A stretch of DNA of 6,383 nt, taken from contig CAZECW010000211.1 of the NCBI GenBank assembly GCA_964510585.1, positions 1-6,383 on the forward strand. Direction: 5' to 3'. This document shows positions 2 to 6,383 of the stretch, one piece after another (within the stretch, counting starts at the first letter, position 1; each line of letters begins with the position of its first letter). The translations under genes were made by a program, and so were the position numbers. The notes beneath the pieces were generated by a model. That model saw nothing but the letters and a program-made list of their open reading frames with translations. It did not search any database and was not told the DNA's origin. The stretch comes from an uncultured archaeon. GTDB lineage: Archaea; Asgardarchaeota; Jordiarchaeia; Jordiarchaeales; Jordiarchaeaceae.

Positions 2-241
2 TGTCTGCACTATGATAAGATGTGGTTTGATTTTCCAGACTGGGACAAAATTAAGGCTGGCCCTCCAGACGTTATTGCTGCCTATGAGAAGGAGAGGTAC
101 AAGATTGCCTGTTCTGACCCCAAGAGCAAGTACTGGAACCCCGGACCCAGTGACTACTGGATACCTATGGAGCACTACCAAGCCTGGGTTGACGCCTGCA
201 AAAAGTATGGTTCCTATCCAAAAGGCTGGGAGCAACCATAA
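2..241 (+). CDS. 3' end of an unidentified protein, probably truncated by the window edge; Trp/Tyr/Pro-rich C-terminus
   Basis: Frame 2 is open from base 2 (CLHYDK then MWFDFPDW...GWEQP) to TAA at 239-241. There is no SD before ATG20, so the true start is probably upstream. It is followed by an AT-rich intergenic region. I recognise no family motif. Confidence 0.7.
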   Translation, partial: CLHYDKMWFDFPDWDKIKAGPPDVIAAYEKERYKIACSDPKSKYWNPGPSDYWIPMEHYQAWVDACKKYGSYPKGWEQP

Positions 242-305: not shown

Positions 306-698
306 TTGGCGACTATAGAGGATTCAGACGCCTGTTTTCATTTTGGCGTTGAGAGAATTAAGAAAATACATGAGGAAGGCTTAGGTGTGGGGTGGAACCC
401 CTTTACAGTGGTTATGTGGCTTGAGGACTTGAAAAGGGGATACTGGTACAAGTTTAAGAAAGACGGTATTCTTGAGGATGCAAAAATAGTTACTGGCGAA
501 CCACCGGAAGCCACAGCTGTTGTGTATATGTCGAGTGATGATTGGGTTGGCCATCACACGAAAGAAGTGGATCTGGCTGAAAAGTACTTTTCAGGCGAAA
601 TGAAGGTTAAGGGTGATGTAGTAGTTCTACAACAGTACCAAACCTATGATTCCTACGAACCCTACTATCCTCCGGGACATCCTAAACACAAAAAATAA
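306..698 (+). CDS. SCP2 (sterol carrier protein 2-like) lipid/acyl-CoA binding domain protein, 130 aa, TTG start
   Basis: The size fits, and the SCP2-like C-terminal half is present: 'ATAVVYMSSDDW....EVDLAEKYFSGEMKVKGDVVVL' (G-x-[ML]-K-[VI]-x-G-D). It has a good SD. Confidence 0.75.
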   Translation: MATIEDSDACFHFGVERIKKIHEEGLGVGWNPFTVVMWLEDLKRGYWYKFKKDGILEDAKIVTGEPPEATAVVYMSSDDWVGHHTKEVDLAEKYFSGEMKVKGDVVVLQQYQTYDSYEPYYPPGHPKHKK

Positions 699-871: not shown

Positions 872-2557
872 TTACACTGTTTGTGGTTTGAATTCTCCAA
901 AAACTTCTCTTAAAACTTGGCATATTTCCCCCAGTGTGGCGTAGGCTTTAACTGCTTCTATTAGGGTGGGCATTAGATTGCATTTTTCCTGCTTCGCCTC
1001 TTCTCGTAGCTTTTCAAGGAGGCTGTCCACCAGTCTATTGTTGCGTTCCTCTTTTATTTTTTTGAGATTGGAAATTGCCTCCTTTTCGATTTGTGGGTCT
1101 AATTTGTGTAGGGATAATTGAAGCTTTTCATCTGTTTGAAACTTGTTAACTCCTACAATGATTCTTTCGCCCCTTTCTACTTCCTTCTGGTAATTGTAAG
1201 CCATTGAGGCTATTTCCTTCTGAATATACCCCCTCTCGATGGCCTTCACCATTCCCCCCATTTCATCAATTTTCCTAATGTATTCCAATGCTTGCTCTTC
1301 AAGTTTGTCTGTCAGCGTTTCTATAAAGTATGAGCCTCCAAGTGGGTCTATGGTTTTTGTGACTCCGCTTTCGTAGGCTATTATCTGCTGGGTTCGCAGG
1401 GCTATTCTTACGGATTCCTCGGTTGGGAGGGCTAGGGCTTCATCCATGCTGTTTGTATGTAGGGATTGGGTTCCGCCTAGGACTGCGGCTAGTGCTTGAA
1501 TTGTTACTCTTATTATGTTGTTTTCTGGCTGTTGAGCGGTTAGGGTTGAACCTGCGGTTTGGGTGTGGAACCTTAATTGCAGGGAGCCTTCCTCCTTGGC
1601 CTTAAATCTGTTCTTCATTATTTTGGCCCACATTCTTCGCGCTGCCCTGAATTTTGCTATTTCCTCAAAGAAGTCGTTGTGTGAGCTGAAGAAGAAGGAT
1701 AATCTTCCTGCGAATTGGTCTATGTCTAATCCTCTCTCTAAGACTGCGTTCACATATGATATTCCGTTTGCGAGGGTGAAGGCAATTTCTTGGACGGCGT
1801 TGGCACCAGCCTCCCTAATGTGGTATCCTGAAATTGATATGGGGTTCCATCTGGGCATGTTTTTGGTACAATATTCTATTACGTCGGTAACCAGCCGCAT
1901 AGAGGGTTTTGGGGGGAAAATGTATGTTCCCCGGGCAACGTACTCCTTGAGAATGTCGTTTTGAACTGTCCCTGCAAGTTTTGAAATGTCAACTCCCTGT
2001 TTTTGGGCAACTGCAATATACATGGCTAATATGATTGCGGTGGGAGCATTAATGGTCATTGAGGTGCTAACTTTGTCTAGCGGTATCCCCTCAAAAAGGG
2101 TTTCCATATCCTTTAGGGTGTCAATTATTACTCCAACTCTTCCAACTTCTCCCTGGGCAAGTGGGTGATCTGAATCGTATCCCATCTGTGTAGGAAGATC
2201 AAAGGCCACACTGAGGCCAGTTTGCCCCTGCTCAATAAGGTACTTGAACCTCTTATTGGTTTCCTTGGCTGAAGCGAATCCAGCGTATTGCCGCATGGTC
2301 CAGAGTCTTCCCCTATACATGGTGGGGTAAACGCCTCTAGTGTAGGGGTACTCTCCTGGAAAACCTAGCTCCTCAACATAGCTTTTTCCGATTCTGTCCA
2401 ATGGAGTGTAAAGTCTATTCAAAACTATTCCAGAGGCGGAGAGGAATATTTTCTCCCGTTCAGGATTTTTCTCTAAAAACTTACTGAGCTTTTCCTTCTC
2501 CCACTTCTCAAGTCCTTTTTTTAGACTCTGCAATTCTTCACCATCATCCTCAGACAT
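872..2557 (-). CDS. mcmA: Methylmalonyl-CoA mutase, large (substrate-binding, N-terminal domain) subunit of a split enzyme, about 561 aa
   Basis: Family motifs are present: [78 protein letters not shown] and [11 protein letters not shown]. There is no DxHxxG cobalamin domain. I prefer ATG 2557 over TTG 2563 because GAGGT (2569-2565) is 7 nt from the ATG and only 1 nt from the TTG. Confidence 0.95.
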
Positions 2558-2564
2558 TTTCAAA

Positions 2565-2571
2565 ACCTCTA
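2565..2571 (-). promoter_or_regulatory. SD (GAGGT) for the mutase, overlapping the DUF35 stop codon
   Basis: The minus strand reads TAG-AGGT-TTTGAAA-ATG, so the TAG stop (2571-2569) shares its G with GAGGT. Confidence 0.75.
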
Positions 2572-2940
2572 AATAGGTTCAAAAATAATTCCTAGGGCTG
2601 GTTTGCCCTCTGAGTCCACTGATACTTGCCCATATGTGGGTTTGACCCTCATCCCTATTTCGACCTTTTCCTTCTCGGAGATCTGGCCGAAGATTCTCAC
2701 CCCATTATCAAATTCCACTATACCGAATACGTAGGGTGGTTCACCCTTCAGGGTTTCGGGGAGGGCGTATAGCTTTGTGAATGTTATGACTTTGCCGCTA
2801 TCTAAAGGTTCAGGGTAAATGTCTTCAAATTCTGAGGCTCTACACTTAATACATTTAATCCTTCCCGGATACTGGATTCTACCACACCTTTTACATTTAA
2901 TTCTCCGAAGCTCTTCCATCATTTTCTCCTTATTTTCCAT
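2569..2940 (-). CDS. DUF35-family Zn-ribbon + OB-fold protein (ChsH2-like acyl-CoA-binding scaffold), about 123 aa
   Basis: Two CxxC pairs (CKRC...CIKC) are followed by 'GKVITFT', '[19 protein letters not shown]' and 'VEIGMRV'. I moved the start from TTG 3000 to ATG 2940 because GGGTGAT (2953-2947) is optimally spaced from it. Confidence 0.9.
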
Positions 2941-2946
2941 CTGGTA

Positions 2947-2953
2947 ATCACCC
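2947..2953 (-). promoter_or_regulatory. Shine-Dalgarno site GGGTGAT for the DUF35 gene
   Basis: It lies 6 nt upstream of ATG 2940. Confidence 0.7.
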
Positions 2954-3265
2954 ATAAATAGGCAGAGAGAATCAATAATTAGAGTGTAGCTATTCACCAA
3001 TATTAAACTATTTCAGCACCTCCAAAAATAGCAGGCCTAATTTGATAAAATGTGTGCCAAAAGGTTTGTAGTGTAAATCGTCCGGAGCGGGGGTTTAATT
3101 TTTGGATAGAGGTTCTATTCTTTTCTATAGAAGTCCTAAATATTTTTTCTTTTGTCCAAAGAAGCCCCTTTTACAATTTATTTTTAGGGATACCTGAAGC
3201 AGCCAAGCCAAATCATCCATCAATTACTTGTATCCCAAAAGTCAGAGACCTTTTTATGCCTAACC

Positions 3266-3289: not shown

Positions 3290-4240
3290 CTAAATTAAAC
3301 CCACTTTTTTGAAAATGTCGATAAACTCTGGGTTTGGGGGAGCCTTCTTAATCAATTCTTTGAGTCTGGGGCCTAATTCCTCGGGCGTCCAAGTGCCGTT
3401 CTTCTTCACCTCTCCCACATCATGCCAAGACTGTAAGAGGAAAACAGTACCCCCAACAAGTCTAATCACCCTACCTGTAATGTCTTTTGCGTCGTCTGAA
3501 GCTAAATAAACCACCAGAGGGGCAAGGTTTTGGGGTCCCAGCGGGTCGTACCCAAACCTTTTAGTCATCTCTTCGGGAGTGCTCATTATAGGCGCTATAG
3601 AAGGAGTCGCCTCCGTCGTCAACCTGGTCCTAGCCACAGGAACTACAGTATTTGCAGTCACCCCATACTTCGCCATTTCCTTCGCCACGATATTCGTGAA
3701 AGCCACGATTCCAGCCTTGGCAGCCCCGTAATTGCTTTGACCTGGATTATAGAGCAAGCCCGCATCGGAAGCAGTGTTTATTATTCTTCCTGCTACGGGT
3801 TTTCCTTCTTTGGATTGGGCTCTCCAGTAGTTGCAGGCGTGTCTGGTGCAGTTGAATGTTCCCTTGAGGTGAACGCCTATCACTGCGTCGAAATCTTCCT
3901 CTTCCATGTTGAATATCATTTTGTCTCTTAGGATTCCGGCATTGTTGACCAGTATGTCCAATTTTCCGAAGGTGCTAATAGCCTGGTCAATTATCCTCTT
4001 TGCTCCCTGGAAGCTTGTGACGCTCTCATAGTTGGGGGCTGCTTCCCCTCCCATCTTCTTGATTTCGTTTACCACCTCGTCAGCGGGACCATGAAATTCA
4101 CCCTTCCCATCATAGCTTCCGCCCACATCATTAACAATCACTTTCGCCCCATACTTTGCAAGGAGTAAGGCTTCTTCGCGTCCTAAACCTCTTCCAGCGC
4201 CAGTAACTATAGCTACTTTACCTTTAAGTGATATTGGCAT
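3290..4240 (-). CDS. Classical SDR oxidoreductase, MFE-2/HSD17B4 (3-hydroxyacyl-CoA dehydrogenase)-like and Rv3548c-like, probably NAD(H)-dependent, 316 aa
   Basis: It has TGAGRGLG, VNDVGG (acidic residue at the end of beta2, suggesting NAD), NNAGILRD, VHLKG, Ser158, Y171-x3-K175 (YGAAK) and ARTRLT. Confidence 0.92.
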   Translation of the reverse strand: MPISLKGKVAIVTGAGRGLGREEALLLAKYGAKVIVNDVGGSYDGKGEFHGPADEVVNEIKKMGGEAAPNYESVTSFQGAKRIIDQAISTFGKLDILVNNAGILRDKMIFNMEEEDFDAVIGVHLKGTFNCTRHACNYWRAQSKEGKPVAGRIINTASDAGLLYNPGQSNYGAAKAGIVAFTNIVAKEMAKYGVTANTVVPVARTRLTTEATPSIAPIMSTPEEMTKRFGYDPLGPQNLAPLVVYLASDDAKDITGRVIRLVGGTVFLLQSWHDVGEVKKNGTWTPEELGPRLKELIKKAPPNPEFIDIFKKVGLI

Positions 4241-4379: not shown

Positions 4380-5186
4380 TTATTTTCTTGGACGGTAATC
4401 AAGACTCCTCATATTTGAGGGATCTATTCTTTCTCTTATTAGTTTAATTTGGTTAACTGTAGGTGGTTCTGTCTCAGGAATCTTCTCAGGAAGTAAGAGG
4501 GGGAATCCAGTGTTCTCCTTTACTTCATTCAAAGATACGCCTTTGTGTATAGATTCTAATCGCATTTTTCCACTCTTCTCGTCGAATCCCATCACACAGA
4601 GGTCGGTGATTACTTTGCATGGGCCTCTGCCACTGATTTTTAGGTTTTTTCTCCACTTACCCTCTTCTAAGTGCCCGGGACCTGTGATGAAATCGACTTT
4701 TTCGACGAAGACTCTGGGCTCATGTCTAGGTACGTAAACGAGAAGCCGTCCGCATAGGTGTGCCACGTCGCCTATTGCTACGCCTCCTGGCAGCCGAACT
4801 TTAGGTTTAAAGTAATCTCCCACCACACTATTATTGATGTTACCATATTGGTCTATTTGGCCTGGTCTTATGATTCCAAAGTCGATCTCTCCCCTCTGCC
4901 AGAGGTCGTGGAGGTCTGTTAACTTTATGAGAGCCTCAGCTTTAATGGTTTTAAAGGCAGTAGGGTCAGCCATCACCGCCATATAGTTTGTGTAAGGATC
5001 AGGGTTAACCCACATTCCATATATGCAGATAAGATTCGGTGCGTGGGTTACGCGAGCAAGCTGAGTTGCTATCACTCCAATTGGGGTTGCTGCACCTAGA
5101 TACATTTTTTCTCCATCTCTCATTTCTCGCGCCAAACTCACAATCATTAATTCGTCTATGCCATAATCTTTGGCGTATTCCGACAT
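4380..5186 (-). CDS. Class I CoA-transferase-fold beta subunit (GctB/IpdB-like) apparently lacking the catalytic Glu, 268 aa
   Basis: Family motifs are present: ELMIVSLARE, THAPNL, QIDQYGNIN, GDYFKPKVRLPG, HEPRVFVEKVDFITGPG, VITDLCVMGFD, VKENTGF and IRERIDP. Where GctB-like proteins have 'xxYESG', this one reads 'ICIYGMW'. Confidence 0.88.
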   Translation of the reverse strand: MSEYAKDYGIDELMIVSLAREMRDGEKMYLGAATPIGVIATQLARVTHAPNLICIYGMWVNPDPYTNYMAVMADPTAFKTIKAEALIKLTDLHDLWQRGEIDFGIIRPGQIDQYGNINNSVVGDYFKPKVRLPGGVAIGDVAHLCGRLLVYVPRHEPRVFVEKVDFITGPGHLEEGKWRKNLKISGRGPCKVITDLCVMGFDEKSGKMRLESIHKGVSLNEVKENTGFPLLLPEKIPETEPPTVNQIKLIRERIDPSNMRSLDYRPRK

Positions 5187-5199
5187 TTCTCATCCCCTT

Positions 5200-6048
5200 T
5201 TAGCTCTTTTTCACTTTTTTCAGGTATTCTTCATGATCCTTAACTGAGTAAATGTACTTATCTAGGTACTCTTCGTAAGCTTTAGGATTACTAGAAGCTA
5301 TAGTGTATTCTGTAATGTGGGGAACATCCATAGTATATAGCGGCAGAAAACCAGTTGGATGAGCACCATAGGGCGCCTCCACTACAAGGTCAACTTCATA
5401 TTTTGGTAACATTAATCTTGTATCTTTTTCCGGTTCTCCTTTCACTACCTTCTCCACAGTAACTATTGTTTTCTTGGCCGCTTGGGCAAATGCTACCAAT
5501 AAGTCAGTCATTATCTGGGATTCTAAGGCGTAAATGTTTCCAAGGGAATCGCACTGATATGCATGTATAAGCGCAACGTCAAGTTTGGTTGCTGGCACCG
5601 CTACAGTTTTTTGGTTTGTTATGGGGCAGTCAAAAACTTTAAAGTCCGTATTAACTTTCAGCAGATCTGAACCCAGAAGTGACCTAGTAGGTAGGAAGCT
5701 CACCCCCATAGCTGCAGCTCTGAGGCCCAAAACGAAGGTCAGTTCACTATACTCTTTGAAACTTATTTCACCGTTCTGAACTTTGCTGCGGAAGTTTTGG
5801 GCAAAGCCCATCATCGGGAAACCCACGTAGGCCGCGCAGATTCTTTTAGAACAACCGGAGCCCACCAGCAGATCTACATCTACATCACCCATAAGGGAGT
5901 ATACTGTCAAATCTGTAATTTTTTGTCTCACGATCTCTCTTACGGCGGCCATAGGTTTATAGACAAGAGATGCTCCACCTATTCCTATAGAGTCTCCCCT
6001 TTTTATCTCACTGACTGCTTCTTGTAAACTCACAATCTTTTTCCTCAT
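5200..6048 (-). CDS. Class I CoA-transferase-fold alpha subunit (GctA/IpdA-like), about 282 aa
   Basis: Family motifs are present: SLQEAV, GDSIGIGG, KPMAAVREIVRQKITDLT, RAAAMGVSFLPTRSLLGSDL, DVALIHA, IVTVEKVV and VVEAPYGAHPT. I prefer ATG 6048 over TTG 6054 on SD spacing (GAGGT at 6060-6056). Confidence 0.9.
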   Translation of the reverse strand: MRKKIVSLQEAVSEIKRGDSIGIGGASLVYKPMAAVREIVRQKITDLTVYSLMGDVDVDLLVGSGCSKRICAAYVGFPMMGFAQNFRSKVQNGEISFKEYSELTFVLGLRAAAMGVSFLPTRSLLGSDLLKVNTDFKVFDCPITNQKTVAVPATKLDVALIHAYQCDSLGNIYALESQIMTDLLVAFAQAAKKTIVTVEKVVKGEPEKDTRLMLPKYEVDLVVEAPYGAHPTGFLPLYTMDVPHITEYTIASSNPKAYEEYLDKYIYSVKDHEEYLKKVKKS

Positions 6049-6055
6049 ATTCAAA

Positions 6056-6080: not shown

Positions 6081-6250
6081 TTCACTCCCAAAAACGTAGA
6101 TAATCCTTAAAATTTTTCACCCAATTTAATTAAAATACAGATTCAACCGACTTAATAGCTCATCGCTCTAATAATTTTAATGTTCAATTACTTATTCTGC
6201 CTGACCTTCAGGCCACAATTTCTTTTGCTCGAGGGTATCCGTATTTTTAC

Positions 6251-6383
6251 AAAACCTTGGCGAGAAAGCCCCCGACTTTAGTCGTGGGGATGAATCGCCA
6301 GAAAGTTTATTTGAAAGTATGGTATATAAATAGTTGTTGGTAGCTGAAGGGTTTGGCTTGGGCTTAAGAGGCTAAACAAGACG
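6251..6383 (+). mobile_element. Left end of an IS200/IS605-family (IS608-like) element or derived MITE, running off the window
   Basis: TTAC (6247-6250) is followed by AAAACCTTGGCGAG, then AAAG (6265-6268) at the foot of an imperfect hairpin CCCCCGACT-TT-AGTCGTGGGG (6269-6289). An outer stem TGGCGA (6258-6263)/TCGCCA (6295-6300) encloses it. This matches the IS608 left-end layout: TTAC cleavage site, AAAG guide and subterminal hairpin. Confidence 0.8.
6323..6332. promoter_or_regulatory. TATA-like element inside the IS end, readable on either strand
   Basis: The + strand reads TATATAAATA. The - strand reads TTTATATA (6330-6323), which fits the archaeal TTTAWATA consensus. Confidence 0.4.

Follow-up and report, generated by a model that had tools for sequence, protein, structure and literature searches.

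What can a coenzyme A (CoA) transferase do once its catalytic glutamate is gone? The question is raised by two adjacent genes in a 6,383-nucleotide stretch of DNA (contig CAZECW010000211.1; the window), which makes up the whole of a 6.4 kb contig (C211). The genome, 96% complete, is that of an Asgard archaeon (Jordarchaeia) from a hot spring. The genes encode the alpha and beta subunits of a pair with the fold of the family I CoA-transferases of the glutaconate CoA-transferase (Gct) type. An earlier note, made from the sequence alone, had suggested that the beta subunit lost the catalytic glutamate and that the pair was repurposed, possibly as a hydrolase similar to IpdAB. In our view the pair is a functional heterodimer from the Gct branch of family I. 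The favoured reading, to which we assign a probability of roughly 40%, is an IpdAB-like C-C hydrolase of oxoacyl-CoA that depends on Glu102 of the alpha subunit as its base.

Loss of the beta glutamate and gain of an alpha glutamate

Both subunits match the Pfam family CoA_trans PF01144 (alpha: 3.7e-29, beta: 6.6e-17). In the PDB, alpha matches 1poi_A (GctA, 3.5e-39), 6co6_A (IpdA, 2.3e-32), and 5mzw_A (AibA, 1.6e-30), and beta matches 1poi_B (GctB, 2.6e-28), AibB (6e-17), and IpdB (4e-15). Direct translation reproduced the motifs, residue numbers, and codons quoted in the earlier note (H48, G57, R107, and alpha E102; Table 1). In family I enzymes the catalytic Glu of the beta (S/x)ExG loop forms the acyl anhydride and the CoA thioester. 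The glutamate of the GctB 'vESG' motif has no beta counterpart in the alignment, and the former catalytic loop is free of acidic residues. Gly57 sits at the site of GctB Glu54, at the position of AibB Cys56, and at that of the Glu in the genome's own Glu-bearing paralogues, so the suspected loss is real. A glycine at the catalytic-Glu site (Gly57) is also reported for RHA1 IpdB (PMC5380842).

Other parts of the beta active site have changed as well. From the glycine-rich family motifs FLGGAQID and GSGGAND, beta retains only the Gln and the Asp. The second of these motifs, now GGVAIGD, we take to be tied to thioester chemistry. Arg107-Pro108 is nearly invariant among betas of the clade whose alpha subunits carry Glu102 (the alpha-Glu clade), and Gln110 is retained there. 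Arg107 stands three residues ahead of this Gln110 and may bind a carboxylate or oxyanion.

Two acidic residues, Asp63 and Asp74, had been named as possible substitutes for the lost glutamate. Beta Asp74 aligns with an Asp or Glu in the Glu-bearing paralogues (VGD, VAD, IAE, PND) and with AibB Glu72. Since it is shared with paralogues that still possess the catalytic Glu, it is an ancestral residue and not a relocated nucleophile. Asp63 is without a conserved counterpart in the alignments, and neither residue rescues the transferase. A mini-intron or a recoding event that would conceal the Glu was rejected: beta has the length of its 72-97% identical orthologues, there is no in-frame stop, and at the loop beta is shorter than GctB, not longer.

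In the alpha subunit a glutamate is found where IpdA has one. Alpha E102 aligns, with the highest posterior probability, on the residue that differs between 6co6_A (EMDE, wild type) and 6coj_A (EMDA), the latter entry being titled 'RHA1 IpdAB E105A'. The match of E102 with IpdA Glu105 was seen in pairwise and in profile alignments, in agreement with the by-eye placement of the earlier note, and Glu99 aligns on Rhodococcus IpdA Glu102. At the Glu102 position GctA has Gln, as had been stated, and AibA has Gly. Judging by the title of entry 6COJ and by papers citing the work, IpdA Glu105 is the catalytic base of IpdAB.

Measured against a 94% identical orthologue, the ratio of nonsynonymous to synonymous substitution rates (dN/dS) is 0.077 (alpha) and 0.048 (beta); purifying selection on the pair is strong, and the genes are not decaying. 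Together with the recurrence of its signature in other genomes (next section), this indicates a repurposed enzyme, as had been supposed, and neither a pseudogene nor a one-off degenerate copy. Loss of the family nucleophile and changes in two glycine motifs could also point to a non-catalytic protein that binds acyl-CoA or serves as a scaffold. Such a pseudoenzyme is very improbable with dN/dS values of 0.05-0.08 and with newly fixed polar residues of the active-site loops conserved throughout the clade: E99 and E102 are invariant in the alignment of the alpha-Glu clade (14 sequences) and R107 is nearly so. In addition, IpdAB and AibAB, the Glu-less relatives of solved structure, are enzymes.

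The alpha-Glu clade and its affinity to IpdAB

Pairs without the beta glutamate are common, not rare. Nine alpha/beta pairs are present in the genome, four of them Glu-less (contigs C211, C118, C101, and C139) and five Glu-bearing, one of the latter fused. Among the 250 nearest beta homologues (pooled from two database searches) the catalytic Glu is missing in 190. The RPxQID motif occurs in 88 of the 250, none of which has the catalytic Glu, so the possibility of a one-off copy is excluded. Carriers of the motif are Jord-, Hod-, Heimdall-, Odin-, Thor-, and Helarchaeia as well as a number of bacteria, among them one whose record is labelled [Eubacterium] cellulosolvens. A beta homologue of any type (E <= 1e-40) was detected in 113 of the 201 genomes searched, the own genome included.

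The alpha residue at the Glu102 position was compared with the state of the beta glutamate in 69 alpha/beta pairs. Where beta retains its Glu and alpha spans the site (n = 10), the alpha residue is Asn in nine pairs and His in one; an eleventh alpha is truncated. Where beta is Glu-less, alpha has Glu (25 pairs), Cys (22), Gly (5), or Val/Ile (2), with four alphas truncated. The alpha Glu is therefore confined to Glu-less betas (25/25), and it accompanies the beta RPxQID motif with the exception of the C139 paralogue. In a tree built on the concatenated subunits after the trait columns had been masked, all alpha-Glu pairs and the C118 type, in which the Glu was lost, fall into one group of 27 rows. 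Within it the pair's own family is sister to a Hodarchaeales/Heimdall group.

Two further Glu-less clades were uncovered. The 22 pairs of the second have an invariant alpha Cys, in the motif 'E(H/D/G)(A/T)C', exactly at the Glu102 position; their beta motifs are NTAD/NVSD and PGGAAS, and their hosts include Aquificota, Dehalococcoidia, Thermodesulfobacteriota, and Acidilobaceae, among others. The third consists of five Asgard pairs with Gly at this position. Two plasmid matches, Sinorhizobium pSymA and Mycolicibacterium chubuense, were set aside: both keep the Glu in the catalytic loop, and their alphas have His and Cys, respectively, at the Glu102 position, not Glu. The homologue P0143, which had been guessed to be IpdB-like, proved not to be so.

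Profiles of the alpha-Glu clade and of the genome's true-transferase (Glu-bearing) clade were scored against the PDB. The alpha profile of the alpha-Glu clade reached 207 bits with GctA, 168/156 with IpdA, and 128 with AibA, as against 267, 109/93, and 132 bits for the Glu-bearing clade. For beta the corresponding values were 171 (GctB), 98/88 (IpdB), and 101 (AibB) as against 252, 73/67, and 100. The alpha-Glu clade is nearer to IpdAB than the Glu-bearing clade is, by 58-63 bits in alpha and 21-25 bits in beta. On these scores it appears clearly shifted towards IpdAB, and not towards AibAB. The likeness to IpdAB suggested in the earlier note stands in the beta Gly57 and in the matching alpha Glu. 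The scores do not carry it as far as membership in the IpdAB family, GctAB being the best match, and the pair is best described as IpdAB-like.

IpdAB hydrolyses COCHEA-CoA in steroid ring C/D catabolism and is known from Rhodococcus jostii RHA1 (6CO6, 6CO9, 6COJ), from M. tuberculosis (6CON), and, as ScdL1L2, from Comamonas. The pair shares with it the two-subunit Gct-type fold, the Gly at the site of the beta catalytic Glu, the alpha 'ExxE' with its second Glu at the Glu105 position, and neighbours of the FadD, FabK-like (IpdC), thiolase, and SDR (short-chain dehydrogenase/reductase) kinds. It differs in identity (21-32%), in the beta motifs RPxQID and PGG(V/A)A(I/V)GD that mark its clade, and in its archaeal host. 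GctAB of Acidaminococcus fermentans (PDB 1POI) is the best-scoring solved relative (28-33% identity) and has the same fold and subunit layout. The genome also encodes true, Glu-bearing pairs of the GctAB kind, both within the same gene module and at other sites. Unlike them, the pair is without the beta Glu54 and the GSGGAND motif and has an alpha Glu where GctA has Gln.

Locus and gene neighbourhood

On the minus strand the genes follow one another in the order alpha, beta, SDR, DUF35 protein, and methylmalonyl-CoA mutase catalytic subunit (Table 1). Both open reading frames (ORFs) of the pair are intact and are separated by 13 nt with an AGGGGA ribosome-binding site in the gap. A TTG at 6054, two codons ahead of the alpha ATG, is also in frame, but orthologues measure 280-284 aa. 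The SDR gene begins 139 nt downstream of beta. A deposited contig 94% identical to the window belongs to Candidatus Jordarchaeia archaeon RPF2, and a 97% orthologue is present in the hot-spring samples JGI 3300045900 and SRR25522558.

Table 1. Features of the window. Positions are counted from the first nucleotide of the contig.
Feature	Position	Strand	Basis or remark
Alpha subunit, Gct-type family I CoA-transferase fold	5200..6048	-	282 aa from ATG 6048
Alpha E99-Y-S-E102 ('ExxE')	5743..5754	-	KEYSE translated from 5757-5743; E102 codon 5745-5743
Beta subunit, fold as alpha, without catalytic glutamate	4380..5186	-	268 aa
Beta former catalytic loop, H48-APNLICIY-G57-MW (HAPNLICIYGMW)	5010..5045	-	direct translation
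Beta IIRPGQID, replacing the usual FLGGAQID	4851..4874	-	direct translation
Beta RLPGGVAIGD, replacing the transferase glycine motif RLPGSGGAND	4767..4796	-	direct translation
SDR, MFE-2/Hsd4A-like (3R)-hydroxyacyl-CoA dehydrogenase type	3290..4240	-	NCBIfam PRK07791, 376 bits, above cut-off
DUF35 (ChsH2-type OB/zinc-ribbon) protein	2569..3000	-	Pfam PF01796 and PF12172
Methylmalonyl-CoA mutase catalytic subunit	872..2563	-	Pfam PF01642, 6.9e-240; TIGR00641, 850 bits
SCP2 gene	306-698	+	convergent to the minus-strand genes

Orthologous contigs (85-97% identity) extend the picture beyond the contig end. In these the pair is divergent from a run of DUF35, SCPx-type thiolase, Glu-bearing Gct-like pair, and acyl-CoA ligase genes, and the run continues with a FabK/NMO-like flavoprotein and a D-2-hydroxyacid dehydrogenase. 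In the own genome this left arm is contig C129. Wherever a close orthologous contig reaches far enough, the SDR gene comes after the pair. The direct orthologue of the pair is present in only one of five congeners. In some samples the two arms are separated by an IS66 transposase; in the 97% orthologous contig it is found at L003:8358-9002, where the own contig ends. Its place at the contig-end site and the patchy presence among congeners suggest a mobile or recently rearranged module.

Two congeners, G028 and G038 (the latter closed), possess the DUF35-mutase-SCP2 core without the pair, and in G028 a 2-hydroxyacid dehydrogenase directly abuts DUF35-mutase. The pair therefore belongs to an accessory module of about 10 kb and is not an obligate partner of the mutase. 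The module comprises an acyl-CoA ligase, a true CoA-transferase, a DUF35-thiolase, a FabK-like reductase, and an MFE-2-type dehydrogenase. In the window, the DUF35 protein belongs to the DUF35-mutase core and the SDR to the module of the pair. In closed G038 a single 697-aa ORF (L111:9845-11938) covers DUF35 and the mutase catalytic subunit, pointing to a gene fusion; in the own contig 5 nt separate them. Two further mutase paralogues of the own genome, on C29 (1-2960) and C28 (19952-25402), with 62% and 48% identity, adjoin a CoA-transferase alpha gene or SDR and DUF35 genes.

Across the orthogroup a divergent DUF35-thiolase adjoins the pair in five of seven neighbourhoods, and a CoA-activating enzyme is always near, either a ligase with a Glu-bearing CoA-transferase or a class III CoA-transferase. 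SDR and FabK/IpdC-like NMO genes are also found. Since a thiolase with DUF35 and a separate CoA-activating enzyme are constant, the CoA ester on which the pair acts is probably made by something else. Among the more distant orthologues (69-75% identity: L006, L008, L101, and L102), the 72% orthologue (L006) has a DUF35-thiolase-SDR set upstream and SCP2 and a 2-hydroxyacyl-CoA-dehydratase/BzdNO-like pair downstream. In L008 and L101 the gene immediately before the pair encodes a class III CoA-transferase. It matches best, always below the NCBIfam cut-off, the formyl-CoA, succinate-glutarate, and mesaconate types (dicarboxylates).

Some neighbourhoods differ in other ways. A nitroreductase-family gene lies directly upstream of the pair in the 69% orthologue (L102:626-3748) and, on a Thorarchaeota contig (L109:5237-7788), between alpha and beta. 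The Glu-less C139 paralogue (12825-15173; 8689-12507) stands beside two BKACE (beta-keto acid cleavage) genes, a flavoprotein of the old-yellow-enzyme/2,4-dienoyl-CoA-reductase type, an MtmB-like gene, two thiolases, and two DUF35 genes.

At its other end the window holds a Trp/Tyr-rich C-terminal fragment of 79 aa (2-241, plus strand) with no Pfam or NCBIfam match. Copies with 97-100% identity are found at both ends of C206 in the same genome and beside SCP2 in congeners, and the fragment is part of a multi-copy gene that seems to break the assembly. On the alpha side the contig stops about 330 nt upstream of the gene, in a hairpin-bearing stretch (6247-6383).

Candidate reactions

With the beta nucleophile gone, ping-pong CoA transfer is lost. 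In CtfAB the E46S and E46A variants are inactive and E46D is a hydrolase, which shows that removal of the Glu ends family I CoA transfer; a displaced carboxylate that is unable to reach the thioester acts as a general base and makes a hydrolase of a family I enzyme (PMC12400318). RHA1 IpdAB showed no CoA transfer (PMC5380842), and IpdAB cleaves a C-C bond in a hydrolytic ring opening, not the thioester (PMC6678751). In the pair the fold is retained and so, by inference, is the acyl-CoA site. What was gained is the alpha glutamate, as in IpdAB (Glu102, together with Glu99), and the clade-specific Arg107-Pro108 beside the old catalytic loop. The alpha Glu at the IpdA catalytic position and the general-base hydrolysis of Glu-displaced variants together lead to the reading as an IpdAB-like hydrolase.

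A possible sequence of steps is as follows. The ligase or the true CoA-transferase of the module would activate the substrate, and the adjacent MFE-2-type dehydrogenase would oxidise it, CoA-bound, to a 3-oxoacyl-CoA. Glu102 would then act as a general base and activate water on the CoA-bound substrate, which would result in hydrolytic (retro-Claisen-type) C-C cleavage of a 3-oxoacyl-CoA unsuited to ordinary thiolysis. The product would be handed to the divergently transcribed DUF35-thiolase. The catalytic role of Glu102, the type of reaction, and the order of steps are what we infer. A Sterolibacterium set of IpdAB-like, DUF35, SCPx thiolase, and IpdC-like genes (PMC6678751) is the same as that found in the context of the orthogroup. 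Compared with the KstR2-type context of IpdAB (echA20, ipdC, fadA6, fadD3, ipdF, fadE30-33), the module has the FabK/NMO-like, thiolase and DUF35, ligase, and SDR genes; an EchA20-type crotonase and acyl-CoA dehydrogenases are absent from it. A steroid substrate was considered and dropped: the neighbours are of generic beta-oxidation type, and nothing indicates that the pair acts on a steroid or another cyclic compound.

Several observations weigh against the hydrolase reading. GctAB, not IpdAB, is the top-scoring solved relative of both subunits, by clade profile as well. The AlphaFold2 models (predicted local distance difference test score: 93 for alpha, 78 for beta, with beta residues 60-85 poorly modelled) gave a foldseek probability of 1.00 for both subunits against the PDB, with template modelling (TM) scores of 0.83-0.89 for alpha and 0.71-0.74 for beta; the alpha model scores 0.88-0.89 with GctA and IpdA (IpdA: 0.89). 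These TM-scores are about equal for GctAB, IpdAB, and AibAB and do not discriminate between them. The placement of Glu102 relative to the thioester is taken from the alignment. The link between the alpha Glu and the loss of the beta Glu traces to one evolutionary event; as a single independent contrast, it is a clade-defining combination and not repeated covariation, and permits no statistics. No crotonase corresponding to EchA20 is encoded in the module. Finally, the Hodarchaeales sister clade stands beside an MFS transporter and MarR with no CoA-pathway genes nearby, and other members of the RP-type clade have unrelated neighbours, so the clade is probably not isofunctional.

The main rival is a biotin-independent decarboxylase acting on a dicarboxylyl-CoA (glutaconyl-, methylglutaconyl-, or methylmalonyl-CoA type) in the manner of AibAB, the 3-methylglutaconyl-CoA decarboxylase of Myxococcus xanthus (PDB 5MZW-5N03). 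In this reading the acyl-CoA would sit in the pocket inherited from Gct, CO2 would be lost, and the enolate would take up a proton from alpha Glu102 or beta Asp74. In AibAB, likewise a pair of the Gct family, the beta Glu is replaced and the chemistry on acyl-CoA is not that of a transferase (PMC7756340; PDB 5MZW); AibB Glu72, the proposed proton source, to which AibB Cys56 is hydrogen-bonded, is the residue on which Asp74 aligns. The carboxyltransferase domain PF01039 was found in none of the 11 genomes of the order (own genome included, one closed), that is, the usual biotin enzymes for methylmalonyl- or glutaconyl-CoA were not detected, although 10 of these genomes contain 2-3 methylmalonyl-CoA mutase genes. 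Some other decarboxylase or carboxylase, or other mutase substrates, must then be involved. The dehydratase/BzdNO-like pair after the 72% orthologue and the dicarboxylate-type class III CoA-transferase before two orthologues would also suit this chemistry. Nevertheless we consider it unlikely. The pair has Gly57 where AibB has Cys56 and an invariant alpha Glu where AibA has Gly, and the clade profile is no nearer to AibAB than that of the true transferases (128 vs 132 and 101 vs 100 bits). An active-site Arg is ill-suited to the hydrophobic carboxylate pocket of AibAB, whose own context (HMG-CoA synthase, LiuC hydratase, AibC reductase) has no counterpart in the window or the orthologous contigs. 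The case for a methylmalonyl-CoA decarboxylase that builds on linkage to the mutase is weakened by congeners G038 and G028, which retain the mutase-DUF35 core without the pair and thus make the link facultative. About two dozen crotonase-family genes are present in the genome, any of which could be a YgfG-type decarboxylase.

A further candidate is an acyl-CoA thioesterase. Glu-to-Asp variants of GctAB and CtfAB are described as acyl-CoA hydrolases that work by general-base catalysis (PMC12400318, which cites Mack and Buckel 1997; PDB 9cq2, 'E46D hydrolase'). A carboxylate out of nucleophilic reach would activate water and free the acid and CoA, for instance at the end of a CoA-dependent pathway, and the module's complete set of thiolase, ketoreductase, (in L006) dehydratase, and FabK-like reductase could need such a terminating step. 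This is improbable, as plain thioester hydrolysis is wasteful for a fermentative anaerobe, the same module encodes a true, thioester-conserving CoA-transferase, and IpdAB, which alone among characterised enzymes has this alpha Glu, cuts a C-C bond and not the thioester (PMC6678751).

An atypical CoA-transferase appears distinctly unlikely too. It could pass CoA from one carboxyl of a dicarboxylate to the other by way of an internal anhydride, or use alpha Glu102 as a relocated nucleophile. The first mode has a precedent in ThnP of anaerobic naphthalene degradation, a family I protein without the conserved Glu that carries out intramolecular CoA transfer on dicarboxylyl-CoA (PMC11659651). Arg107 could hold the second carboxylate, members of the orthogroup adjoin dicarboxylate-type class III transferases and a dicarboxylyl-CoA mutase, and the MFS transporter of the Hodarchaeales sister clade is of a kind often found with acid-activating enzymes. 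However, ThnP is a single-chain protein of the Cat1 subgroup of family I, not of the Gct A/B type, and no specific relationship to it is detectable. RHA1 IpdAB, with the same alpha Glu, transferred no CoA (PMC5380842), and the change from GSGGAND to GGVAIGD shows that the glycine motif was altered as well.

The IpdAB-like hydrolase thus remains the favoured reading; sequence and context are insufficient for a choice among hydrolase, decarboxylase, thioesterase, and other chemistry. A broader proposition is that the alpha-ExxE/beta-RPxQID pairs form a distinct, widespread family with an acyl-CoA reaction of its own and that at least one of the four Jordarchaeia paralogues is a biotin-independent decarboxylase, which would connect the order's methylmalonyl-CoA mutases and 2-hydroxyacyl-CoA dehydratases with propionyl- or crotonyl-CoA, given that a carboxyltransferase gene turned up in none of the 11 genomes searched. 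Taken as a whole, this is doubtful.

To our knowledge only two Glu-less members of this fold, IpdAB and AibAB, have been characterised, each with unexpected chemistry, and no characterisation of the alpha-Glu/RPxQID clade was found in the literature searched. Loss of the Glu thus has precedents; what is new is the clade with its RPxQID signature and its archaeal setting. In databases these genes are named 'glutaconate CoA-transferase subunit A/B', and as a result the pairs are counted as CoA-transferases in metabolic reconstructions of Asgard archaea. For these genes the label is almost certainly wrong. Establishing the reaction biochemically would put many annotations right and might uncover a new step, C-C-cleaving or decarboxylating, in anaerobic acyl-CoA metabolism.

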